From a virus, in the IMG/VR virus record IMGVR_UViG_3300017724_000029: a stretch of DNA of 34,004 nt; one strand, given 5' to 3'. Positions 1-34,004 of this stretch are shown piece after piece (the first letter of the stretch is position 1; each line of letters begins with the position of its first letter). A program made the translations under genes and the position numbers. The notes beneath the pieces were generated by a model. It was given only the letters and a program-made list of their open reading frames with translations, made no database searches and had not been told where the DNA came from.

Positions 1-122
1 GCTCAAGTGTTGCAATAGTCCATGTAGTCATTAGTTAGTCTCCAATTGTGCAACTCTGGCACGTAGTGATTGAATTTCTTTTACAAGCATAGGTACTAGC
101 TTTGAGTAGTCTACGCCCATCA
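1..122. repeat. Terminal direct repeat, copy A (identical to 33883..34004)
   Basis: I compared the two ends base by base. All 122 nt (gctcaagtgttgcaatagtccatg...gtctacgcccatca) match. The repeat contains the tail-fibre stop codon (31..33) and the start of the 105-aa gene (ATG at 29..31). Confidence 0.97.
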
Positions 123-3100
123 TTTCTTCTTCGGTTGCGCCTTCAGACACAGCCTCTGGTGCAACGCTCTGTAGCTCCTGAGCAACCATGCCGTACTTCT
201 GGTGTGAACCGTCAACCTTCCAGTCAAACGAACGTACTTGGATAGCGTCAATGTCGTCAGAAGCAGAAGGTGCGTCTACGATGTTTTCTTTAAGGCGTTG
301 GTCTGAAGAGGTGTTGTAGGCTGTTGCAGAGCCGTCTGTAGATATAGAGCCAACTTCACCGTTACCGTTAAAAAATAATTTGTGTTTTCTACCTGAGGTA
401 GATGTTGCACTAGAATATGTCTGATAATCAGATATGCCAGTGCCTTGAACCGATGCACTTGGCAATTCAGTACAGCTAACCAGCAAGTTGCCAGAGGCAT
501 CTATGCGTGCGGCTTCGGCAGAAACATTGCCTTCAGGATAAAACGCAATGAAGTTAGAACTAGCGGCTATAGTAGGGTTGCCGCCACCATAAGTACCTCC
601 CCAACTTATATTGCCTCCATCACCTAACTCAACACTGCCTGACAGGTAAAGGTCTTTAAAGCCATTGTTTGAATTACCTAAAGAAACTTTACCGTTAACT
701 TCGGTGCCAGACTCATTAGTTGGAGTTATGTGACGTAATGTATCTCCACCTGCTCCAGCTCCTGTTAAGCCTGCGCCTTGTCCAGAACGAGGGTCTAAAA
801 TTATGGTAGAAACAACGCCAGCACGAGATTGAATACTACCGACTTGGGTAGTGGCACCTTTCCTAAATATTAAGATGTCGCCATCAGAGTCTCTTCGGTC
901 AAAAATGCCAGACATTTGGTGAGAAGAAACTGCGTGGACATAACCTCCATTATGTAATGCAACTGATGTTGCGTCTCCTGATGAAGTGCCTGAGACGATT
1001 AAGTTGCCAGAAGTATCGATGCGCATGGCTTCTGACCAGCTGATAGCCGTTCCTGCCGTGCCTGATGCGGCTTGTTGGAATATCATCTCGTTAGCGTCAA
1101 AGAATAAACGAGACGTTCCAGCGGTGTATTTGTAGACTTCGCTGTTGTCTGTTTTAAACACGTAGTTTGTGCCAACCATTCCGTCAACACCACCAGCCGA
1201 ACGACCAACAAGGTTCATACCGCCTTGCTCTAAGTTTCTCCATGCACCTGAAGAATTTTGAGGCGTGACACCAATTCCAACATTCCCTGATGAGTCGATG
1301 CGCATGCGTTCTGTGTTGCCAATAAAATGACCAAACGAATTGTCTGAATGGTCAAACTTGATATAGCCTGCGTAGGAACCTCCTCCACTTGTTGCGTCAG
1401 CGAAGTTTAAGCCTCCATAATTAGAAGATCCTGTGTATATTGTGATGCCTTCATTGCCACTACCAGAGCCTACAACCAAATTACCAAGACCGCTGGATGA
1501 GTTTATTGTTGACGCAACGGTGTTGTTAATACCCACACTTCCGCTAGAATCGAGGCGCATGCGTTCTGTAACATCAGTACCGTTAGACGCACTAGTACCA
1601 AAGGTTAACGGCATACCATAAGAGCTAATCTGTGTGTTAGAAGTGCTATTAACAAGAAAATCAAGGCCGTTATACGGCCCGCTTCCTGTTGCAGAATTGT
1701 ATAGCTTTACAATATTTACAGCATTGTCTGAACCAATTAACGCAGGTCTTGAGGTTCCTACAACATGCAGTTTCTGTGCTGGGCTAGTGCCAATTCCAAC
1801 ATTCCCGTTTAAATCCAAAGTGAATTGAGGATTTGTTCTTGCGTTTATTCCGTTTGTTGCAATGTTAAGATTGCCTGTTGAAGAGCGATAGTCAAAAGTT
1901 GCTCCTCTTGCATCTCCTTCAGAAAGTGTAAGCTGTTCTTGTGAGCTTTTTACGGCTAATTTAACTACAGGCGAGCTAGTAGCAATACCAACATTACCAG
2001 AGCTGGCAAAAGTTACTTTAGGCGTAGTGTTAGCATTAACATAAAAGTTCAAATTGGGACTTGCGCCATTATTTGCACCTATATCCCAATAACTAGATGC
2101 CCCAGTGTTTTCGATAATTCTTAATGCTGAAGGTAAATTTGCAGATACAGTTCTTGAGTAGGCTGAGATTGTTGCTGTAGAGCTTGCCCCTGCGCCTATA
2201 GCGATAGTTTCATTAGAACTAGACCAACTGAACTTCGGAGTTGTCCCCGTATCTTCGTAGAAGCTGATGTCGTTGTTTGCTTCTATAACAGCGGCTTTAT
2301 TGTTTCCAGTATAAAACTCAATTTTTCCTGAACTTCCAGTGCCGCTATATGACTTAAGCCACATATTAGACGAATTGCCTACGCCTATAGTTCCTTCGTA
2401 TGAAGATCCATCATCGTAAAGTTTTAGTTTGTCGCCATTAGATGCAGTTGAAAACGCCCCTGGTTGTCCGTATGAGCCTGAGCCAGTTGCAGAAAAAAAC
2501 AACTCTCCGCTTGCACCATCAACAGTAAGCCCGTCCATCGTGGCTGTGCCACTAACGTCGATGCCTGTGGCGGTTGTGGCTAGTTTATTATTGCCTAAAT
2601 GTGAAAGTGTCACGCCGCCATCAGTAAGAATCTTGATGGCTTCATAATCACTATGTTCTGATTGGTCTACTGAATAAAAAGTAGCAATACCGTCAGCACC
2701 TGAATCACGTCCAGCCTCAATACGTAAACCACGGCCAGTAGTGTCGTAAGGAGTTGAGCCGAAGTATACATCTACTTGAGAATTGTTAGCATTTCCGGTG
2801 TTGTAAACGGTTAGCCCTTCCGCCGTAGCACCTGCGCTAGTAACTCGAACCGTCGTTACGCCATCAGAAACTATGCCGTCGCTGACCACTGTGCCAGTTA
2901 CGTCGATGCCTGTGGAGGTTGTGGCTAGTTTTTCAGAACCATCGTAGTAAAGCTTAAGCGCACCGTCAGTAGTAGCTAACAGTTTGTTTTCACTAAACGC
3001 CGCATTCATCAAAGCAATGTTGTTGGATGCCCCAATATATAAATCGCCAGTGCCTGCGTCAGTTATAAAGCTGTGGCTGCCTGAGTGGTATATTTGTAAG

Positions 3101-3345
3101 TCGCTACCCGCACCGAAAATAGCCTTGGAGTTATCAGGTAGTGTTAAGTTGCCGCTGGCCAAGCTAAGGGAAGTTAAGCCATCGACCGTACCTGAATTAA
3201 TATCAATGCCTGTGACTGCTGTAGTGCCGTCTAGCAGGTTGTCGATACTATCTAGGTTGGTGTTGAGTTTAGTTCCCCAAGTGTCTTCTGAGGCCCCTAC
3301 TTCTGGCTTAACCAGGCTGTACGTAGTCGTTGTAGTGTCAGCCAT
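31..3345 (-). CDS. Tail fibre protein with a C-terminal peptidase S74 intramolecular chaperone domain
   Basis: 1104-aa ORF. The N-terminus [30 protein letters not shown] is typical of phage fibre anchors. Six (M)R(I/L)D(S/T)SGN(V/L)GIG-like motifs are present. The last 92 aa ([10 protein letters not shown]...[16 protein letters not shown]...[20 protein letters not shown]) match the S74 auto-cleaving chaperone pattern. A GGGAGG Shine-Dalgarno lies 8 nt upstream of the ATG. Confidence 0.9.
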
Positions 3346-4284
3346 TTAAGCGGCCTCCCATGTCTCGTCGGTGATGGTTTGATCAGTCCAATTTGCGTCA
3401 CTAGCCGTTTTATCGGTCCATGTCGCGCCTATTAATGTTACGTCAGACCAGTTTGAGTCATTTCCTGCCTGGTCAGTCCAAGTCTCCGAATCGATAGGTT
3501 GATCAACCCAGAGTATTATCGCTGCGCCTGATATAGCCGAGCCGCTTGTTACTACACTGCTGCCCGCTACAGTAACTGCGCCTGCCGGTGATACTGTCGC
3601 CACCCCAGTGATTGACAGAGAGCCGCGCACGACGTTTACACCATTAGCGCTGATTATACCACTTGCAGCGATTGCAGACGCAGAATTCCTTGTCCTTGCG
3701 CCGGATACTGCCGTTGTGGCCAATCCGTTTATTGCAGATGCACCATTTAAGACGCGCGCCCCTGACGCTACAGTAGACGCAGAAGCCCCTACAGCGCTTG
3801 ATGCCTGACGTATAACGCCAGCACTACTAGACGTCGCAGAAGACGCTGAAATGGCTGTATCGCCTTCTCTAACCCTTTGAGCGGCTGGTGTGACCGTAGC
3901 AGAGGAAGATACCGCAGATGCGCCTAGCTTTATCTTCTGACCAGCAGATACCGTGCTAGATGATGCAGAAATATCAGACGATGACTCACGTACCCGTGTT
4001 GCAACGGGTGCCGTGGTAGCTGAAGCTGCAATGGTTGACCCAGTTGTACGTACGCGTGTCGCTACTGGGGTTATCGTGGCTGTGCCGGCAATGGTCGAAC
4101 CACTGGTACGAACACGTAAGCCTGCTGGAGAGGTCGCAGACGTCGCTGTGACGGTTAGATCGCCAAACCTAACGCGAACACAGCTAACGGCCACTGAGGA
4201 TGTTGCTGGACCTAAACTAGCGCCTTCCTCAAGGTCAGCCGTGGAATACGCGGCATAGCCGTATCTCCACTGACCGTAGTTCAT
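3346..4284 (-). CDS. Fibre-associated repeat protein (Ser/Ala/Thr-rich 20-aa repeats plus a Trp decapeptide ladder)
   Basis: 312-aa ORF coupled to both neighbours (TAATG upstream, TAA-ATG downstream). Eleven tandem 20-residue units are followed by six W-x9 units. It sits directly upstream of the tail fibre. Confidence 0.6.
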   Translation of the reverse strand: MNYGQWRYGYAAYSTADLEEGASLGPATSSVAVSCVRVRFGDLTVTATSATSPAGLRVRTSGSTIAGTATITPVATRVRTTGSTIAASATTAPVATRVRESSSDISASSSTVSAGQKIKLGASAVSSSATVTPAAQRVREGDTAISASSATSSSAGVIRQASSAVGASASTVASGARVLNGASAINGLATTAVSGARTRNSASAIAASGIISANGVNVVRGSLSITGVATVSPAGAVTVAGSSVVTSGSAISGAAIILWVDQPIDSETWTDQAGNDSNWSDVTLIGATWTDKTASDANWTDQTITDETWEAA

Positions 4285-5769: not shown

Positions 5770-7674
5770 TTATAGCAGGAACTCACTTGCAGCCGCTGGA
5801 TTGTAGATTCCACGCTTTGCTTGAGTGCTGAATTTTAACAATCCTTCAATCATATCCTCGACGACTCCGGTATATGCTGGGCTGTAACCACCTAACAGTC
5901 CTTCACGCGCTTCCGGGTCTTTTGACCGCTTGATTGGCAGTAAGTCGCTGTAGTTATACGCTTCACTATCTTTCTGTGGGAGCTGTGCAAGCAAGCCTTC
6001 TGCCTCTTGCCCTGCCGCTACGGCTGCCGCTGTAACCATTGGGTTGGCATTTACATTAACACCGCGAGCCTCTAGACCGCGAAGTATGTCTTCCGTAATG
6101 CGGCCTGTGTACGGCTTCATTGTAAGCGCGCGTATTTCTCGATCTGTAGGCCGTATGGGATCAACAACCGGTTTTTGTGCTTTCCCTAACAAAGCGTCCG
6201 GCACTAACTCAAAGATGCTAACTTCTTGATCTGTACGACCAAGCCCCTGACCCGGAACTCCGTAAGGATATGACGGGTGACCGCTTTTAGTAATTACGTC
6301 GGCGTCTTTGTAAATTTCGCCAATGTTTTGTATGCGTGCATCTAATGCATTTGCTTGACCGGGTTCAGTTACCGCAAGCCTTGCCTGACCAATGCTAAGA
6401 CCGCCTTTGTTGCGGAAGTTAACGTCGATCATGTTCATAAGCTCTTTACGTAGTGCGTCAGGTGCGTTCCTAAACGCTTCGACTGATCTCGGGTCGTCTA
6501 CCCCTTTCCAGCCTTTTATCTTTAAGCCGGAGTTTTTTCGTACCCCGTCTTTTACAGTGCCTTTACTAACGAATTCTGTAACTGCCTTATTAAGCTCTTT
6601 TTTCGTTTCTTTCGCCATGTTGGACGCGGCATAACTGAGCATTGTCTCGCCGGTCATTGTGGCAAAATCGCCGCCAGTAGGCGCCATGCGGAAAGGCATA
6701 TAAAGTGGGTTTTCTCCGGTTTCTCGAGCCGCCTTCATTATTTGCGTTACAACGCCAGGAGCTGACGCCCACGTCATACCTGGATTTTCAAACATAAATC
6801 CTTGACCGCCTTGCAAGTTGATAGGGCGATTTAAGGCTACGTCGTCAATGGCGCTAAGTATCCCGCCTGCCTGAGTACGGTCTGACATTGTGGTTACAAA
6901 AGGGCGTCCTTCAAGGTCAGATAGTGCGATTCTAGGAACGTCCTGAGTACCACGCTCTTCTATAGTAAATGTGGTATCTCGAAGTTTCTCTTGCTCTTTG
7001 GCCCGAGGATCAAATCTAGGGTCAAACTCACGACCGAACGTCTTTATGACGCCGGCCTCTGCCTCTTCTGGCGACATAGCCGCAGCAGCTAAAAGCCCAG
7101 CGCCGGCAACAGGTATAGCCCGGTCACCAAGTATATTAGACCCTTTGTACTCAGGGTCGAATGCGGCAAATAGTGAGCGGACATTACGAGGATCAAACGT
7201 GACCACTTCAGGCGCTAAAGAGCCTCGCTCCCCTGCTTTACTGCCTGCATACCCCATACCCTCAAGCGTTTCATTTAGGATGCGCTGGCCTTCTCTGCCG
7301 CTAATCTCAGGCCGCAAATCAAATGCGTCGGCACGCTTAATATAATCTCCACGCAACAATAAAGGCATGACATTGCCGCCTTCGGCGTAGGGGCTTGGAT
7401 ATCCTGCAAATACAGACGCCTTTGATGGGCTAGGCGTAGTGTAAACGCCCGGCCCCATCTTTCCTTTTGCGCTGGGTCTGAACTGCGTAATGTCTGCTTC
7501 TGTTCCGTGATATTGCACGTCACTAGGGTCGAAGCCCATAGCCTCAGCACGCTGCATGCGAGAGGCTGAATCCATAGGAAGTTGACCGGCAACAATGCGT
7601 TCAGCAGTTTCTTCTGGAAATCCAGCAGTGATTAATTCATCAAGAATGCCGCGTAAGCGAGAGCCGATTGCCAT
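5770..7674 (-). CDS. Large protein with N-terminal ADP-ribosyltransferase-like (H-Y-E type) motifs, possibly a packaged polyvalent-type effector
   Basis: 634-aa ORF with a GGAGG Shine-Dalgarno. It carries YHGT (aa 55-58), GPGVYTT (aa 74-80) and APEVVTFDPRNVRS (aa 154-167) in the order and spacing expected for an ART core. I do not recognise the remaining roughly 450 aa. Confidence 0.45.
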   Translation of the reverse strand: MAIGSRLRGILDELITAGFPEETAERIVAGQLPMDSASRMQRAEAMGFDPSDVQYHGTEADITQFRPSAKGKMGPGVYTTPSPSKASVFAGYPSPYAEGGNVMPLLLRGDYIKRADAFDLRPEISGREGQRILNETLEGMGYAGSKAGERGSLAPEVVTFDPRNVRSLFAAFDPEYKGSNILGDRAIPVAGAGLLAAAAMSPEEAEAGVIKTFGREFDPRFDPRAKEQEKLRDTTFTIEERGTQDVPRIALSDLEGRPFVTTMSDRTQAGGILSAIDDVALNRPINLQGGQGFMFENPGMTWASAPGVVTQIMKAARETGENPLYMPFRMAPTGGDFATMTGETMLSYAASNMAKETKKELNKAVTEFVSKGTVKDGVRKNSGLKIKGWKGVDDPRSVEAFRNAPDALRKELMNMIDVNFRNKGGLSIGQARLAVTEPGQANALDARIQNIGEIYKDADVITKSGHPSYPYGVPGQGLGRTDQEVSIFELVPDALLGKAQKPVVDPIRPTDREIRALTMKPYTGRITEDILRGLEARGVNVNANPMVTAAAVAAGQEAEGLLAQLPQKDSEAYNYSDLLPIKRSKDPEAREGLLGGYSPAYTGVVEDMIEGLLKFSTQAKRGIYNPAAASEFLL

Positions 7675-10162: not shown

Positions 10163-10211
10163 AATCTTCTCCCTTGGTTAGTGGCTGTGTCTCCAGCCGA
10201 TGTAGTTAAGT

Positions 10212-12560: not shown

Positions 12561-12947
12561 TTACCCCCGACCAAATCTCACATCGATATCGTGAGTTTCA
12601 GCTAGGTGTTTGGCAATGACTCGAAACACGTCGTCTACATCGCGCATCTTTAGTTGCGTTACAGACTTCTTATCGAACAAAGCCTTTTGTACAGGACGCC
12701 ACATAATCTCCTTTACGAGCTTTCCTGTCGGTTCTATAGGCAAGGTTACAATGTGTTGCATATCATTCCCAGAAGCCGCTAGAGCGCGTGCTATGTCATC
12801 GCAATAAGCGTGTATAGCTTTCATCTGCTGTGAAGTTAGTTTTGGCTCTAGGATTTCGTACACCTTGCCAGAATTTTGATGTTTCATGATGTACTCGCAA
12901 AACTGCTGCGCCTGGTACTTGTTGTTAACAATCCATCGCTCGCTCAT
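12561..12947 (-). CDS. NinB/Orf-like recombination mediator
   Basis: 128 aa. LTSQQMKAIHAYCDDIARAL and SVTQLKMRDVDDVFRVIAKHLAETHDIDV align by eye with lambda NinB segments RSLDQNRKLWACLGDVSRQV and STSRMRVGEFAELLELIQAFG. Confidence 0.55.
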   Translation of the reverse strand: MSERWIVNNKYQAQQFCEYIMKHQNSGKVYEILEPKLTSQQMKAIHAYCDDIARALAASGNDMQHIVTLPIEPTGKLVKEIMWRPVQKALFDKKSVTQLKMRDVDDVFRVIAKHLAETHDIDVRFGRG

Positions 12948-12964
12948 TTAGGCACTCCCTCTAA

Positions 12965-13056
12965 CAAAGGTAAAAGCGAACAAAGGGATCAAAGCGGACA
13001 AACCGCATAGGTACGGGGTTTGCACGGTTTGCACGGTTTGTACGGTTTGTTGTTTG
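12965..13056. repeat. Dyad-symmetric pentamer array (candidate iterons, origin or multi-site operator)
   Basis: The left arm has five CAAAG/CAAAC/AAAAG units starting at 12965, 12972, 12981, 12990 and 12999. The right arm has five GTTTG units starting at 13018, 13027, 13036, 13045 and 13052. Every mirrored pair centres on 13010.5. The right arm includes the tandem repeat GGTTTGCAC GGTTTGCAC GGTTTGTAC. Confidence 0.75.
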
Positions 13057-13069
13057 TATAGGGGAGTGC

Positions 13070-13447
13070 TCAAGCTGTCACCCTCTCGCCATCAAACGTG
13101 ACGTACTGACCGTACTTTTCCAAGCAATGCGACCTGTAACTTTCTGACTTCATAAAATCGTGAGTGCAATCGTCTACGGTGCTCCAAGACTTCATACCGA
13201 TTTTACCATTATTTGTAGTCATTTTCTCTGCAAATGGCGACACGCCTCGTTCTTGCTGCGACGCCCTAGATATCCAGCCTGCCGCAAATCGCTTTCCATC
13301 CTTCTTTCTCTTCTTCGGATTAGCGTCACACCAAGCAGCCATTGCGCTTAATTCAGCAAACACGTCTACCTTTGGAAACGCATTCTGCCAATAAATGATC
13401 TGGGCATCATCAGGCTCGTAGTAAGTGCCATCAATCAAAATTATCAT
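13070..13447 (-). CDS. Hypothetical protein with a weak replisome-organiser-like motif
   Basis: 125 aa. YWQNAFPKVDVFAELSAMAAWCDANPKKRKKDGKRFAAGWISRA faintly recalls the C-terminal motifs of phage replication organisers. The gene lies directly upstream of the pentamer array. Confidence 0.35.
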   Translation of the reverse strand: MIILIDGTYYEPDDAQIIYWQNAFPKVDVFAELSAMAAWCDANPKKRKKDGKRFAAGWISRASQQERGVSPFAEKMTTNNGKIGMKSWSTVDDCTHDFMKSESYRSHCLEKYGQYVTFDGERVTA

Positions 13448-13658
13448 ATTCTACCCTCACAAACTCTAAAGTAGTTTCGTATGGCCTACCCATATCCTGC
13501 ATGGCCTCGCTATAGAGAGAAGTTAACTCATAAATCCAGTCCTTTAAGACATCGGCTCTCCATAAAGGGTAAATTTCATCCCACTCATGCTTTAGCTTTA
13601 TGTCGCCTTCTCCGGTTCCCCAGTTTGAGCGTAATCTCACATTTTCATCTAATTTCAT
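13431..13658 (-). CDS. Hypothetical protein
   Basis: 75 aa counted from the ATG at 13658, with a GGGAAG Shine-Dalgarno 8 nt upstream. It is the first gene after the 350-bp gap. Confidence 0.55.
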   Translation of the reverse strand: MKLDENVRLRSNWGTGEGDIKLKHEWDEIYPLWRADVLKDWIYELTSLYSEAMQDMGRPYETTLEFVRVEYDNFD

Positions 13659-13857
13659 AATCCACACTTCCCTTTTAATGCCGGAGCAAGCTCCAGCAAA
13701 TTAGTTAATTAGTAATGACGAGCTTTGATTACCGTATCGAATCTTGACATCTATTCCCTTTACCAGCTCTCGGCACAGGGAGGCGCATTATAGAGAGGGT
13801 CAACTCTGTCTCCGAGGTTCTTATGTTCCTCGGCCTAACGCCCGGTAATCTCTGACT

Positions 13858-13941
13858 AAAAAAGGAGGCATGAGTAGTCTTGGGGTGTCTAGGGGTGTCC
13901 AAGGACGTCCCGTCGTGTATACTACCCATGTCTTTTTTCTT
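13858..13941. promoter_or_regulatory. Long A-tract/hairpin/T-tract element that resembles a bidirectional terminator
   Basis: CATGAGTAGT (13869..13878) pairs with ACTACCCATG (13921..13930). The flanks AAAAAAGGAGG and TCTTTTTTCTT also pair. The loop holds an inner hairpin CTTGG...CCAAG, two GGGGTGTC repeats 10 bp apart (13882 and 13892) and the palindrome GGACGTCC (13903..13910). Confidence 0.4.
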
Positions 13942-13994: not shown

Positions 13995-14023
13995 GCCCCT
14001 CAATCGAGGGGCTTTTTACTTTT
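13995..14023 (+). terminator. Canonical intrinsic-terminator shape, but oriented on the plus strand
   Basis: GCCCCTC-AATC-GAGGGGC (13995..14012) is followed by TTTTTACTTTT. On the coding (minus) strand the hairpin is followed by CAAAGGG, which is not a U-tract. No plus-strand gene or promoter is evident. Confidence 0.4.
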
Positions 14024-14440: not shown

Positions 14441-14708
14441 CTTCTGGAAATCCTTGTGGTTGCGGCTCGGGTTGAGGTGCTAAGGCTTGTTTTGCTTGTT
14501 GAACTCCTTTCGCGGCTGCCTCGGCCCTACTCCATCCGCTAATCTTCATGTACTTATCACCGCTCTTGCCGGTGTTAATCCATACATTAAGACCATCCTC
14601 AGTGCCATCTGCGTGTTTATAACTGCCCTTATAATCGGGATCAGTCTCAGCGGCCTTCTCTTTGTTTTTAAACAGTGCGCCCTCGCGCGGTTTATTTTCA
14701 TACGGCAT
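14424..14708 (-). CDS. Small SSB-like protein carrying the SSB C-terminal tip DDIPF
   Basis: 94 aa. It ends ...PQPEPQPQGFPEDDIPF, a Pro/Gln linker followed by an acidic tip identical to the bacterial SSB tail. The N-terminus is GALFKNKEKAAETDPDYKGS...W...GDKYMKISG. It sits directly downstream of the annealing protein gene. Confidence 0.6.
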   Translation of the reverse strand: MPYENKPREGALFKNKEKAAETDPDYKGSYKHADGTEDGLNVWINTGKSGDKYMKISGWSRAEAAAKGVQQAKQALAPQPEPQPQGFPEDDIPF

Positions 14709-14712
14709 TGCC

Positions 14713-15450
14713 TTACTCCTTATTTGCTTTTGCGTTAATCATTACTTGCTTGTACTGCGACTTTACTTCGCTTGAAAGACGATCTTTTACGCACGCCCTT
14801 TCATAGTCCTCTAGCTCACCTTGCAACTGCTCGATAAACACCACGTCGCCATTGTGAACGGCCTCCGTTAGCTTCTCAGCGTAGTCGTCAAAGTTAGCGT
14901 GCATCTGCGTTACTAAATCACGAGTAAGCTGATGCGTTGCCGTCTTCTTGCCTTTCGGAGATCCCTCCTTAACGGCATTCATCTCTTCTTCACTAAGCTG
15001 GCTATACCACACCGCGCAGTTGTGTTTGTTCTCTTCATGCTGGCGTAAGAACTCCTCATACATAGCTGTATGATCAATCTCTTCAGCCGGTGGAAGATCC
15101 TCACCGCGATAAACGTACAAACCCAATCCGTGCATACTGATAGCCTTTGCAAAACAGCGTTGCATTGATGTGTTTAGTTGAAACACGTTTGGAATTTGAA
15201 TCGGCTTATTCTTATGGTCCAAGACCGGCAAATGAGCCTTATGAGACACGCCGCCGACAGTGACAGTGCAGAACACCATAACCTCACCGTTTGGCGTTGT
15301 GATCCAATCATGGTGCTCGTACGTCGCGTCAGGGCAATGCTCACACAACTTCTGCCAAGCAGACGCCCAGCTAATGTAAGACAGGTTTCCTTTCTTCTCG
15401 ATAAACTCGCCGCAGTCTACTTGCGACAAGAATTTGAAGGTGTTTTCCAT
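14713..15450 (-). CDS. Rad52-superfamily single-strand annealing protein (Sak3/DUF1071 type)
   Basis: 245 aa. The hallmarks are KKGNLSYISWASAWQKL..PDATYE, LPVLDHKNKPI, NTSMQRCFAKAISMHGLGLYVYRGEDLP. Confidence 0.85.
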   Translation of the reverse strand: MENTFKFLSQVDCGEFIEKKGNLSYISWASAWQKLCEHCPDATYEHHDWITTPNGEVMVFCTVTVGGVSHKAHLPVLDHKNKPIQIPNVFQLNTSMQRCFAKAISMHGLGLYVYRGEDLPPAEEIDHTAMYEEFLRQHEENKHNCAVWYSQLSEEEMNAVKEGSPKGKKTATHQLTRDLVTQMHANFDDYAEKLTEAVHNGDVVFIEQLQGELEDYERACVKDRLSSEVKSQYKQVMINAKANKE

Positions 15451-28240: not shown

Positions 28241-30667
28241 TCAACCTTTTATCTTGATTGGACCGCGTACAGCGCCCACGTTAATTGGACCGCCAGCAGG
28301 GTCAAAACCACCTGTTACCTGCGGGTTGTATGATGTCTGCAATCCTACTAATTGGTTTTGTAGAGCTGCTATCTGGCCTGCCAGCCCTGACGGGTCAAAC
28401 TGAGGCACTTGACCTATGGCTGATTGATTAGCCGCTATTTGTTGTTGGAGTCCTGTAGGATCGAACCCTGGCGCCTGCTGAAGCGCGGTAATTTGCGACT
28501 GCAAGCCAGAAGGGTCAAACCCTGGCGTTTGTTGCAATGAGCTTATTTGTGATTGTAAGCCCGATGGATCAAACGGCTGAAGGCCAGAAAACTGTTGTTG
28601 CAATCCGCTTATCTGGTTTTGCAGTCCAGACGAATCGAACCCTGGCGTAGACTCTAATGCTCCGAGCCGGCCTAAAATGCCTGATGCGTCAAAGCCAGGC
28701 TGTTGTTGCAAAGAGGATATCTGTGACTGCAAGCCCGATGGGTCGAAGCCGGGTTGTTGTTGCAATGCAGAAATTTGGTTTTGCAATCCAGTTGGATCAA
28801 AGCCAGGACGTGTCTGTAAAGAACCTATTTGCTCTTGCAAACCACCTATCTGTCCCATGAGGCCACTAGGATCAAACGGAGTCATTCCTTCAAATTGGTT
28901 TTGTAGGCCCGAAATTTGCTGTTGCAAACCACTAGGATCAAACTGTTGCATACCGCCAATCTGGCCTTCTAAGCCGGATAAGCGAGACTGTAAGGCGCTT
29001 GGATCAAACGTATCTCTGCCACTTAAATCTCTTAGTTGAGCTTGGATATCACTTGGATCAAAAGGCTGAAATTGGCTGAACTGACCTTCAAGCCCGGCGA
29101 TTCTTTGCTGGATACCCGATGGATCAAATGCACTGCGTCCTTGCAAATCTTGTATTTGAGCTTGCAGATTTGAAGGATCAAACTGCGTCATTCCACCTAT
29201 TTGGCCTTGCAAGCCGGCAATTTGGTTTTGCAAAGATGAAGGATCAAATCCTTCTACATTACGCAAATCAGATATCTGGTTTTGCAGGTTAGTAGGATCA
29301 AACGGTGAGAAGCTTTCTACTCTGCCCCTTATATCTCCAAGCTGCTCGTAAATAGCAGTTGGGTCGAACTGATCTTGACCGCGAAGCTCGGACAACTGGT
29401 TTTGTATGTCACTTGGATCAAAGGGAGTCATGCCCCCTAGCCGTCCTTCGATACCTGCAATTTGCTGTTGAATTGATGATGGATCAAATCTTTCTATCCC
29501 TGTGAATTGGTTTTGTAATCCACCAAACTGATCCCGCAAACCTTCCAGTTGCCCCGCTAGGCCGCTGGGGTCAAATGGCGTCATGCTTCCCAATCGACCT
29601 TCAATGCCAGAAATTTGGTTTTGTAATGCGGATGGGTCAAACCTTTCGATGTTACCAAACTGGTCTTGCAAGCCGCCAAACTGATTCTGCAAACCCGCAA
29701 TTTGTCCCGCTAGACCACTTGGATCAAATTGTTGAATGCCACCGACCTGCCCCTCAAGTCCAGCAAGTCGAGCGGTCAAGTCAGTAGGATCAAATGCTTC
29801 GCGTCCACGCAATTCAGAAAGCTGGTTTTGCAAGTCACTTGGGTCGAATGGTTGGAATTGACTAAATTGACCTTCTAAACCAGCGAGCCTTTGCTGCATA
29901 CCGGACGGATCAAACTGCTCTCGCCCTTGTAGAGCTGTTAATTGGTTCTGTAAGTCAGAGGGGTCAAATTGTTGGAATCCCGATATTTGAGATTCTAAGT
30001 CTTGGAATCTATCGTCGTACTGTGGGTTGTAGATGTTTCCCTGATCAATGAATCCTCGGTTCTCTTCTATTGATCGTTGCATTTCCGCCATCTGAGCCGC
30101 AATGCTAGTTGGGTCGCTTGGATCTCCACCCATCGAGAACTGGTCTCGGCGGATATCGTACATAGGATCAGTAAAATCAAGCGATGGCACATCAAATAAA
30201 GGAGTTTCCGTACCGAACGCCACGTTTTCATCTGTGCCAGGCATATAGCCGGCATCCTGTCCCGGCACTGGCATGAAGTAGCCATCAAAATTTGGAACCA
30301 TCGTTGGCAAGGAAGTGTATTGACTAAATTGCGCGGGGCTTTTTGTTTGCAGGTCTTTTAGTTGTTGCTCGAATAGCTCACCAGAGCCATACCCTTGCAT
30401 GCCGCGATATAAAACATCTGGTGTTGGTATAGATGCTGTGGCGTCAAACCCCGGCCCTGCTAAACCGAAAGCTTGCCCAGCAGTTCCAGCACTTTGCATC
30501 GCTTGTGTTTGCAAAGGAGAAAAAGCCGCAACCTCTGGCCCATAATAGGGAAGGTATCCCATGCGAGCCGTGGCTTGAGCACGCCCCAAATTCTGTCTTG
30601 CAGCGTCTTCAATAAACCTAGGTATTTCTACCTGTGTAGTCTGACTGCCGCCTTTTCCACCTGACAT
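28241..30667 (-). CDS. FDPS-repeat protein (presumed internal/ejection protein or length-determining fibre)
   Basis: 808 aa. It has a 233-aa head, then 26 consecutive FDP(S/T)-initiated units (aa 234-787), and ends FDPAGGPINVGAVRGPIKIKG. Confidence 0.55.
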   Translation of the reverse strand: MSGGKGGSQTTQVEIPRFIEDAARQNLGRAQATARMGYLPYYGPEVAAFSPLQTQAMQSAGTAGQAFGLAGPGFDATASIPTPDVLYRGMQGYGSGELFEQQLKDLQTKSPAQFSQYTSLPTMVPNFDGYFMPVPGQDAGYMPGTDENVAFGTETPLFDVPSLDFTDPMYDIRRDQFSMGGDPSDPTSIAAQMAEMQRSIEENRGFIDQGNIYNPQYDDRFQDLESQISGFQQFDPSDLQNQLTALQGREQFDPSGMQQRLAGLEGQFSQFQPFDPSDLQNQLSELRGREAFDPTDLTARLAGLEGQVGGIQQFDPSGLAGQIAGLQNQFGGLQDQFGNIERFDPSALQNQISGIEGRLGSMTPFDPSGLAGQLEGLRDQFGGLQNQFTGIERFDPSSIQQQIAGIEGRLGGMTPFDPSDIQNQLSELRGQDQFDPTAIYEQLGDIRGRVESFSPFDPTNLQNQISDLRNVEGFDPSSLQNQIAGLQGQIGGMTQFDPSNLQAQIQDLQGRSAFDPSGIQQRIAGLEGQFSQFQPFDPSDIQAQLRDLSGRDTFDPSALQSRLSGLEGQIGGMQQFDPSGLQQQISGLQNQFEGMTPFDPSGLMGQIGGLQEQIGSLQTRPGFDPTGLQNQISALQQQPGFDPSGLQSQISSLQQQPGFDASGILGRLGALESTPGFDSSGLQNQISGLQQQFSGLQPFDPSGLQSQISSLQQTPGFDPSGLQSQITALQQAPGFDPTGLQQQIAANQSAIGQVPQFDPSGLAGQIAALQNQLVGLQTSYNPQVTGGFDPAGGPINVGAVRGPIKIKG

Positions 30668-33596: not shown

Positions 33597-33913
33597 TACC
33601 AAGGCATTCCAGAGCCAGTAACAGGATTCTTATCCGCTGCGATCTTAGCTGTCAGCGCCGCTTCAGTAGCGTCTTGATTTACTGACTCGTGTACCCATGC
33701 TAGTACGGCTGCCTCTGTTAGGCTGTCATAGGCTACAAAGCCGTCAGCGTCTGCGTCAGGCGTAAAGCCTACAGTGCCGTATGAGGATGCAGAGTAAGTA
33801 ACAGCGTCGTCGCCAGTACCTACGGTTTCAGATGCGTTAGCTCGCCAGTGTGCGACGGTTACACCGCCGTCTGCCAAATTTCGCTCAAGTGTTGCAATAG
33901 TCCATGTAGTCAT
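33596..33913 (-). CDS. Conserved hypothetical protein that follows the tail fibre across the circular junction
   Basis: 105-aa ORF. Its ATG overlaps the tail-fibre stop (TAATG), as seen in repeat copy A at 29..33. The pattern TWTIATLER...DGGVTVAHW...LTEAAVLAWV...GSGMPW recalls a family common in marine phages. Confidence 0.6.
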   Translation of the reverse strand: MTTWTIATLERNLADGGVTVAHWRANASETVGTGDDAVTYSASSYGTVGFTPDADADGFVAYDSLTEAAVLAWVHESVNQDATEAALTAKIAADKNPVTGSGMPW

Positions 33914-34004
33914 TAGTTAGTCTCCAATTGTGCAACTCTGGCACGTAGTGATTGAATTTCTTTTACAAGCATAGGTACTAGCTTTGAGTAGTCTACGCCC
34001 ATCA
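33883..34004. repeat. Terminal direct repeat, copy B. It also carries a truncated duplicate of the tail-fibre 3' end (33913..34004, minus strand).
   Basis: Exact copy of 1..122 that runs to the last base of the window. This implies a 33,882-bp unit genome. Confidence 0.97.

Follow-up and report, generated by a model that had tools for sequence, protein, structure and literature searches.

The virus genome analysed here (IMG/VR record IMGVR_UViG_3300017724_000029; 34,004 nucleotides, the whole of which is referred to as the window) carries a 92-bp array of short repeats in two opposed sets at 12965-13056, located between a gene for a 125-aa protein and a NinB-like gene. On balance, this array is probably an orphan, insertion-derived copy of an iteron-type replication origin, of a kind that is found directly behind AAA_25 helicase genes in other phages and in satellite-like elements. 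The initial annotation of the array, made from the sequence alone, had proposed an iteron-type origin or a multi-site operator. The origin proposal holds as to kind, since homologues and analogues of the array directly follow helicase genes, and not as to role: near-identical relatives lack the array, and the genome encodes no matching helicase or primase, and it is therefore not the required origin or operator of the phage that carries it. For an operator no support was obtained.

The pentamer coordinates, the spacings, and the common centre of all five mirrored pairs at 13010.5 that had been reported for the array are correct. The description as 5 + 5 GTTTG/CAAAC pentamers applies fully to the right arm, in which GTTTG is exact at five of five sites (13018, 13027, 13036, 13045, and 13052), and not to the left arm, in which four of the five sites differ from CAAAC (CAAAC at 12999 only; CAAAG at 12965, 12981, and 12990; AAAAG at 12972). 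What the arms mirror is the position and the AAA/TTT core; the symmetry does not extend to the full pentamer. The near-perfect tandem of the right arm was found again by Tandem Repeats Finder (GGTTTGCAC twice, GGTTTGTAC, and GGTTTGTTG; period 9, 3.7 copies, 95% matches). The repeat array is real and non-random: five copies of GTTTG within 39 bp compare with a maximum of three among 300 shuffles, the 15-mer GGTTTGCACGGTTTG has seven near-matches against 0.8 expected, and the predicted hairpin has a z-score of -5.4 to -6.1 on either strand. The array had also been said to fill the whole gap between the genes; the gap measures 122 bp (12948-13069), of which the array takes 92 bp and an 8-bp perfect terminal inverted repeat most of the remainder. 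A consensus scan returned no promoter-like or terminator-like site in this gap, and no second copy of the element was found by repeat and similarity searches of the window.

Across relatives, the unit consensus differs between the two arms (GTGCAAACC versus GCTTTGTTC), and the two are mutually non-complementary. The unit core CAAACC (gene strand) holds 1.3-2.0 bits across lineages, compared to 0.3-1.2 bits in the spacer. Conserved unit cores, variable spacers, and non-complementary arms suggest protein-binding repeats rather than a hairpin under pairing selection. The best-conserved part of the element family is the 12-bp centre GCATAGGTACGG, which is identical or nearly so in all copies at the same site and in three copies elsewhere (L224, L227, and L358), with variants in L356, L359, L360, and L366. 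The features of the array and its junction are collected in Table 1.

Table 1. Array, inserted element, and junction features with their positions in the window
Feature	Position	Strand	Remarks
Inserted element proper	12947..13067	.	121 bp; bracketed by TGAGC copies, in 12 distinct junctions including that of the window
Left iteron set, opposed, degenerate	12963..13004	+	AACAAAGG, TAAAAGCG, AACAAAGGG, ATCAAAGCG, GACAAACC
Centre, 12 bp, GCATAGGTACGG	13005..13016	+	flanked by the innermost CAAACC and GGTTTG
Right iteron set	13017..13056	+	GGTTTGCAC, GGTTTGCAC, GGTTTGTAC, GGTTTGTTG, GTTTG; spacings 9, 9, 9, 7
Terminal inverted repeat, left, GCACTCCC	12952..12959	+	base stem of both predicted hairpins; pairs with 13062-13069
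Terminal inverted repeat, right, GGGAGTGC	13062..13069	+	pairs with 12952-12959
Upstream TGAGC copy	13068..13072	-	from comparison of filled and empty sites in three lineages
Downstream TGAGC copy	12942..12946	-	with the element's last base A (12947) forms the present ATG of the NinB-like gene
Bridging open reading frame, 41 codons	12948..13073	-	from the old overlapped TTG through the whole element to a TAA abutting the new ATG
Shine-Dalgarno sequence GAGGGAG	12955..12961	-	element-borne, 7 nt before the NinB-like ATG; 3' half of the predicted base stem
Upstream gene, 125 aa	13070..13447	-	no Pfam, PHROG, NCBIfam, or PDB sequence match
Downstream gene, 128 aa	12561..12947	-	distant NinB/Orf-family protein

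The evidence for the origin reading comes from relatives of the element in other genomic contexts. A metagenome scan for the conserved centre returned copies in two other contexts (L224 and L227), and a scan for the architecture alone returned a third subfamily (L356 and L357), located between lysis genes and the first early gene. The open reading frame (ORF) that neighbours the L227 copy encodes a 366-aa AAA_25 (PF13481) ATPase, and a homologous element lies at, or a few bases after, the stop codon of every helicase homologue of 62-99% identity (L227, L358, L359, L360, L366, and L367). A profile of four helicase-adjacent elements gave one match per strand in the window, only at 12972-13055 (+), with E = 1.4e-12. 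The element of L360 is of the L356 type; such an element, with a 12-bp perfect terminal inverted repeat (CGGTCTGACAAA), occupies a 400-nt non-coding gap in another phage group (L356:409-810, and L357).

Arrays also follow helicases that are only 28-51% identical (L361, L362, L363/364, L368/369, L371, and L353, the last of which was obtained independently through the architecture scan). Their unit sequences are unrelated (AAAACTTAA; TAAAAGTAC and CCAAACTCC opposite GGACTTTTT; GTAAAACAG opposite CGTTTCCCC; GCGGAAACC in both orientations), and what they share is the plan, i.e., two opposed sets of units spaced by 9 bp around a centre, which measures 70-100 bp in these distant arrays, with arms that are poorly complementary. 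In the autocorrelation analysis, lag 9 was best in 11 of the 11 helicase-adjacent regions tested as well as in the window, which means that the 9-bp period is conserved across the whole class; the relatives carry 5-12 repeat units. For eleven helicase genes of this kind (33-99% identity), an array phased by 9 bp in two opposed sets comes next. Upstream of the helicase lies a primase-like gene (phrog_2249 in L358, L360, and L362; PriCT_2 in L368). The helicase-bearing elements and the window phage have no proteins in common, and the origin-like element alone is shared. Two of the elements with more distant helicases look, from their genes, like uncharacterised phage satellites, namely, L361 (integrase at 131-997, AAA_25 at 2293-3396, and a TerS-like, i.e., small-terminase-like, gene at 3634-3906) and L363 (AlpA at 1149-1376 and AAA_25 at 1520-2701).

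Units of the same size were also observed in other settings. Unrelated phage contigs have arrays of the identical 9-mer GTGCAAACC, with nine copies plus a short inverted copy in L156:10124-10200, and three in L158:7442-7489, where a small terminase gene lies downstream. Two bacterial contigs (L263:7021-7110 and L338:5071-5148) contain hairpins in which each arm is made of 9-bp tandem units (CAAACCAAG and CAAACCCCG). The building plan of 9-bp tandem units in arms may extend beyond the window-type elements.

The AlphaFold model of the helicase (pLDDT 82, pTM 0.75) has a RecA-fold core, with Foldseek matches to RecA, KaiC, and Twinkle at ~1e-9. Residues 297-364 are modelled as a C-terminal helix-strand-helix-helix-strand-strand module with winged-helix topology; this domain was judged by topology only, because matches to the RecA core prevailed in the fold search with the whole protein. 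A precedent for such a protein exists in the pathogenicity islands of Staphylococcus aureus (SaPIs), in which Rep is a self-loading helicase and initiator whose C-terminal winged-helix domain recognises penta- or hexanucleotide iterons; 6-12 of these iterons directly follow the rep ORF, split equally between the two sides of an AT-rich centre and in opposed orientation, and two hexamers are thought to load, one per side (PMC9371898). The helicase-adjacent homologues match this pri-rep-ori arrangement of SaPIs and phage-inducible chromosomal islands in the position, number, size, and orientation of the repeats, and in the upstream primase gene. By analogy, the AAA_25 helicase would double as initiator, as SaPI Rep does, its C-terminal winged-helix-like domain would read the short repeats, and the two opposed sets would each serve to load one helicase ring, on either side of the centre.

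It is anticipated on these grounds that the helicase-adjacent arrays work like a pri-rep-ori origin, and they are not classed here as members of the SaPI family. The helicase is a RecA-fold AAA_25 protein with no match to SaPI Rep in sequence, the centre in the window-type element and its close relatives measures 12 bp and is not rich in A+T, phasing holds strictly to 9 bp, and a long hairpin can form from the entire element. As for the window array, it has 5 + 5 units with the core GTTTG or (C/A)AAA(G/C) in two opposed sets, and it stands alone, lacking the adjoining initiator-helicase ORF and the upstream primase (pri and rep). Adjacency to both helicase and primase was found for the homologues L227, L358-L360, L366, and L367, and for the analogues L353, L361-L363, L368, and L371.

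That the window array is an insertion follows from comparison with related loci. Scans of viral contigs returned 34 loci for the 128-aa protein and 59 for the 125-aa protein, and the element is present in five of the 59 loci anchored on the latter. After added searches for the element itself, 12 distinct filled junctions could be compared with 27 distinct empty ones. Conservation of the architecture in relatives had been suggested as a check by the initial annotation; when it was run, the array proved to be missing from syntenic relatives whose flanking proteins are 96-99% identical. In the empty junctions the 125-aa gene ends in a stop codon that overlaps the NinB-like start, with zero gap, and the sites read ..GCTTGAGCGAGCG / ..GACAGCTTGAGCGAGCG, with ..GCATGAGCGAGCG as the form in other lineages. 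At filled sites the order is ..(A/T)TGAG(C/T/G), then the element, an A, and TGAGCGAGCG. From filled versus empty readings it follows that five bases (TGAGC) are duplicated, and a 121-bp copy would thus have been inserted into the ATGA/TTGA stop-start overlap of the two genes; the boundaries of the element are uncertain by ~2 bp because the terminal inverted repeat extends into the duplication. The upstream TGAGC copy contains the stop codon of the 125-aa gene (13070-13072) and, together with 13073, the vestigial TTG start of the NinB-like gene. The old start (TTG or ATG, overlapping the stop) thereby survives at the upstream duplicate, and the last A of the element completes the new ATG. The stop-start overlap is ancestral, since the 125-aa gene still ends in an ATGA overlap in distant relatives with other downstream genes. 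A remnant of a module swap was considered as well and rejected, as the overlapped start codon is retained at the end of the 125-aa gene and 5 bp are duplicated.

The insert has a long and changeable history. Filled as well as empty members occur in each of three NinB-like lineages (A, B, and C), and the element copies of these lineages are 74-81% identical, compared to 60-64% in the first 300 nt of the downstream gene. This divergence indicates that the insertion is old and has been lost, or replaced through recombination with empty alleles, many times. One such loss can be read in L194, an 'empty' member of lineage C (L194:3001-3420, junction at ~3360-3390), which reads GAGCGAGTAGTCCGATGAGC and retains the final six bases of the lineage C element (GTCCGA; GTCCGATGAGC; the element ends ..GGGGGAGTGGTCCGATGAGC) ahead of the ATG, and in which the end of the upstream protein has changed from ..GERVTA to ..GERVVR. 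Judged by these bases, L194 preserves the footprint of a natural deletion, and what is left is as expected if it ran between GAGT microhomologies.

The junction reads as if the insertion were tolerated by virtue of two element features that keep the downstream gene translated, namely, a bridging ORF and an element-borne ribosome-binding site. The bridging ORF is open in 12 of the 12 element copies (41-47 codons). In lineages A and B it ends with TAA directly before the new ATG; in lineage C it runs in a different frame as a result of a 1-nt deletion, and its TGA overlaps the ATG (ATGA). The frame change in lineage C implies that the relay is conserved and the bridging peptide is not. The old start would open the short ORF, and ribosomes would be carried through the element to the stop that abuts the new ATG. 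The ribosome-binding site lies in the base stem, the 5' half of which (CUCCCC) begins 3 nt past the upstream stop codon, and an upstream ribosome that terminates or translates there would be expected to melt the stem. Translational coupling of the NinB-like gene would be kept in this way.

The openness of this frame in all copies, together with the presence of QTPYLCGL in three subfamilies, could also be taken as the mark of a tiny gene for a 41-47-aa peptide with a polar (TVQ)n repeat and a hydrophobic tail. We give this idea hardly any credence. Lineage C encodes an unrelated peptide in a different frame, the element lies antisense to genes in L224 and L227, and the A-rich and T-rich arms yield polar and hydrophobic codons by composition alone. 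Moreover, the codons TAC CTA TGC GGT TTG are without synonymous change across subfamilies that otherwise differ by ~25%, which places the conservation at the nucleotide level.

The first 122 nt of the window (1-122) are exactly repeated in the last 122 nt (33883-34004), which makes the window a complete genome that closes into a circle of 33,882 bp. In the early-region genes and most ORFs of at least 100 aa, PHROG and Pfam scans identified a Sak annealing protein, a single-stranded DNA-binding (SSB)-like protein, two helix-turn-helix (HTH) proteins, a metallophosphatase-type exonuclease, NinG, lysis genes, head genes, a portal, a terminase, and tail-fibre genes. In agreement with the earlier statement that the genome encodes no polymerase, helicase, or primase, these scans returned none; the six coding-strand ORFs outside them measure 100-126 aa, too short for any of the three. 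A tblastn search with the AAA_25 helicases likewise returned nothing in the window or in any related locus. Given that the matching helicase and primase are absent from the genome, the copy is dispensable to the phage, and firing of the orphan array would require a cognate initiator from another element in the cell, be it a satellite, a prophage, or a co-infecting phage.

That the array should instead be the phage's own replication origin, or a multi-site operator of its own HTH protein, is very improbable. The architecture is iteron-like, a phage without replication enzymes must recruit those of others, and two HTH or winged-HTH genes are located ~1 kb upstream of the array. On the other hand, the array is present in only five of the 59 loci and is missing in relatives with the same gene order and flanking proteins of 96-99% identity, and the HTH genes, as well as a conserved 215-nt stretch described below, persist with or without it.

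Several points weigh against the orphan-origin reading that we favour. The origin status of the helicase-adjacent arrays themselves would rest on position, co-divergence with the helicase, and analogy, the helicase being a RecA-type ATPase without sequence kinship to SaPI Rep. The 12-bp centre has 58% G+C and is not an AT-rich melting region; the A/T tracts sit in the arms. No helicase gene was found with the exact window-type GTGCAAACC units and ACTCCCCC ends, and the L356 and L357 copies are without a nearby helicase gene on the contig parts examined, so that these may represent a second orphan or a distantly placed origin. The 19-26% difference between lineage copies is that of an old, long-kept insertion, which may serve the phage. 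Finally, the 5-bp duplication is a transposase-like signature that the origin reading leaves unexplained; it was seen at one site, the one with empty sites for comparison.

This duplication points to a transposition-like or staggered-break insertion, and for this reason the main rival is a selfish, non-autonomous palindromic element resembling a MITE (miniature transposable element with inverted repeats), without a replication role, whose position behind helicase genes would reflect tolerance or targeting of hairpins. MITEs in phage genomes are known and rare (PMC11602168). An element of 121-139 bp with terminal inverted repeats and no encoded enzyme, the 5-bp target-like duplication, the presence/absence polymorphism with a deletion footprint, and the occurrence in at least four genomic contexts and in both orientations would all suit such an element. 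We nevertheless regard it as unlikely. There is one copy per genome, and blastn with the element found nothing in cultured phages or plasmids. The centre pattern had zero matches in 185,579 species-representative bacterial and archaeal genomes, and among the first 120 matches listed for the architecture pattern in these genomes there was no family member but terminators and unrelated hairpins (best nhmmer E among the listed matches, 0.002), and hence no evidence for a host repeat family was obtained. PHROG and Pfam scans returned no transposase candidate in the window. Conservation peaks at the centre and not at the ends, which differ among subfamilies. Helicases of 28-51% identity keep the 9-bp architecture with unrelated units, which fits co-evolving binding sites and not repeated insertions.

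An intercistronic RNA hairpin, selected to set the expression of the downstream recombination genes via hiding of the ribosome-binding site, RNase processing, or mRNA stabilisation, in the way that REP, ERIC, and Correia elements work within operons, has to be considered as well, and is rated slightly below the MITE-like element. In most contexts the element is found within a series of genes read in one direction, past the stop codon of one gene and ahead of the following ribosome-binding site, and it has a strong predicted fold (-42 to -56 kcal/mol, z of ~-6), in which CUCCCC and the Shine-Dalgarno sequence are paired in the base stem. This stem varies between CCCCU...AGGG in the window type and CCCCC...GGGGG in other lineages; in the RNAalifold alignment these columns count as a U-G wobble and a broken C-A pair, not as compensatory. 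Overall, RNAalifold found one compensatory pair in 27 and an unfavourable covariation term for the element, against 10 of 38 pairs in the ~215-nt candidate RNA. In addition, sense and antisense fold about equally with no consistent bias, the arms vary independently by whole 9-bp units with non-complementary cores, the distant helicase-adjacent arrays have 70-100-bp centres and poorly complementary arms, and the element occurs in both orientations to transcription. Taken together, these observations make selection for an RNA hairpin doubtful. Rfam 15 gave no match at the gathering threshold in the window (only a chance mir-375 match, E = 0.4).

Several other known systems resemble the orphan-origin candidate in part. 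The IncQ plasmid RSF1010 combines RepA, a hexameric helicase of the AAA_25 family, with the dedicated primase RepB', the initiator RepC, and an oriV with ssiA and ssiB. Its palindromic priming signals on both strands are a likeness, as the conserved hairpin apex of the present element could play that part; in contrast, IncQ iterons are ~20-bp direct repeats read by RepC, with no opposed 9-bp sets. In plasmids P1 (incA) and F (incB/incC), orphan iterons away from the initiator gene titrate or handcuff Rep supplied in trans and have no origin function of their own, but these belong to the same replicon as their rep gene, whereas the window genome is without Rep. Lambda-type or plasmid-type iteron origins, with 17-22-bp direct repeats, DnaA boxes, and an AT-rich region, were tried as a model and failed, since the units here are 9 bp in two opposed sets. 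The repeats known as ERIC (enterobacterial repetitive intergenic consensus) or IRU (intergenic repeat units), Correia elements, and REP/BIME (repetitive extragenic palindromes and bacterial interspersed mosaic elements) are likewise palindromic inserts of ~100-150 bp between cistrons, variable among close relatives, co-transcribed, and able to form RNA hairpins. They differ in having tens to hundreds of copies per genome and conserved ends, as opposed to one copy per genome, a conserved centre, helicase-linked relatives, and no family member among the matches listed for bacterial genomes in the case of the window element. An integron attC site was also rejected: the ends CTCTAAC (+ strand) and GTTAGAG (gene strand) break RYYYAAC/GTTRRRY at R and Y, and there is no integrase or cassette. 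A loose pattern, CAAACC-N3 three times, was dropped after returning mostly coding repeats from viral contigs.

For phage-satellite conflict over origins, a precedent is found in PLE, the Vibrio cholerae satellite, which has an iteron origin read by its own initiator RepA, this origin being targeted in the conflict with phage ICP1 (PMC7145576, PMC8263062). A satellite iteron origin contested in such a conflict is the likeness to the present case; the difference is that ICP1 attacks the satellite origin with a nuclease. No description of a phage that carries a copy of a satellite origin was found in the literature searched. It is conceivable, if improbable, that the window phage, of virulent type and without a helicase, carries the origin of a rival phage or of a primase-helicase satellite as a weapon or tool. 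With both in one cell, the orphan iterons would either recruit the self-loading helicase and primase of the other element for replication of the phage genome or titrate its initiator and so starve it, and the patchy presence of the insert in phages that are nearly identical would have been left by an arms race for origins.

If the orphan-origin reading is true, an origin class becomes recognisable by sequence, namely, two opposed 9-bp-phased sets behind an AAA_25 helicase gene that follows a primase gene. This class would span helicases only ~30% identical, in uncultured marine phages and satellite-like elements, providing annotators with a handle on origins and experimenters with a defined initiator-site pair. 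It would also mean that an origin can travel alone, detached from its initiator, into a junction of a phage without replication enzymes, and that a striking iteron array can be an origin by descent and yet not the origin of the genome that carries it. Orphan origins could constitute a hidden layer of phage-satellite or phage-phage interaction, via initiator theft or titration, for which the polymorphic insert supplies natural isogenic phage pairs.

The local genes are all on the minus strand, in the order 125-aa gene (13447..13070), 122-bp gap, and 128-aa gene (12947..12561). The 125-aa protein has no family or PDB match, also when a 13-sequence profile was used. The label NinB-like for the 128-aa protein holds weakly: the window protein itself reaches only E = 0.014 against PF05772, under the Pfam cut-off, and six of eight homologues match this family, with a best E of 2e-6. 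No close cultured relative turned up; megablast of a 4-kb region that surrounds the site matched none of 50,697 phage records, and tblastn with the exonuclease against cultured phages gave a best identity of 39%.

A ~215-nt non-coding stretch is located ~600 nt upstream of the array (13657-13874, minus strand), upstream of a 78-aa gene. It was found in all of ~80 related loci with 81-99% identity, even where the neighbouring proteins are only ~53% identical. For 11 diverse copies, RNAalifold predicted a fold of -47.6 kcal/mol with compensatory double changes in the above-mentioned 10 of 38 pairs, consisting of a multi-stem core of ~125 nt and a separate hairpin; it has no Rfam match. This stretch is a candidate new structured RNA or leader, and it is more plausible than the array as an essential cis element. 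A terminator-like hairpin (AAAAAGCCCCTCGATTGAGGGGC, 13995-14022) directly follows the stop codon of the winged-helix gene and is conserved in L061.

Elsewhere in the window, a ~40-nt motif (..GGCTGGATACACAGCC..GGGAGAAACACCATG) lies just before a start codon (10167-10201; also L356:772-814 and L061:12162-12215) and is common, with 88-94% identity, to several phage groups in regions that are not otherwise related; a conserved leader or a hairpin for ribosome binding may account for it. Where the Sak and SSB-like genes meet, a 22-bp unit (TTGCCTTAATCATTACTTGCTT) is present as two tandem copies (14708-14751), and a 54-bp unit is repeated 2.4 times in frame in an 808-aa structural gene (28679-28807). 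Lastly, a 634-aa protein encoded next to the terminase gene (5770-7674, minus strand) has a sub-threshold match (E = 3e-5) to PF18760, the ADP-ribosyltransferase domain of polyvalent proteins.

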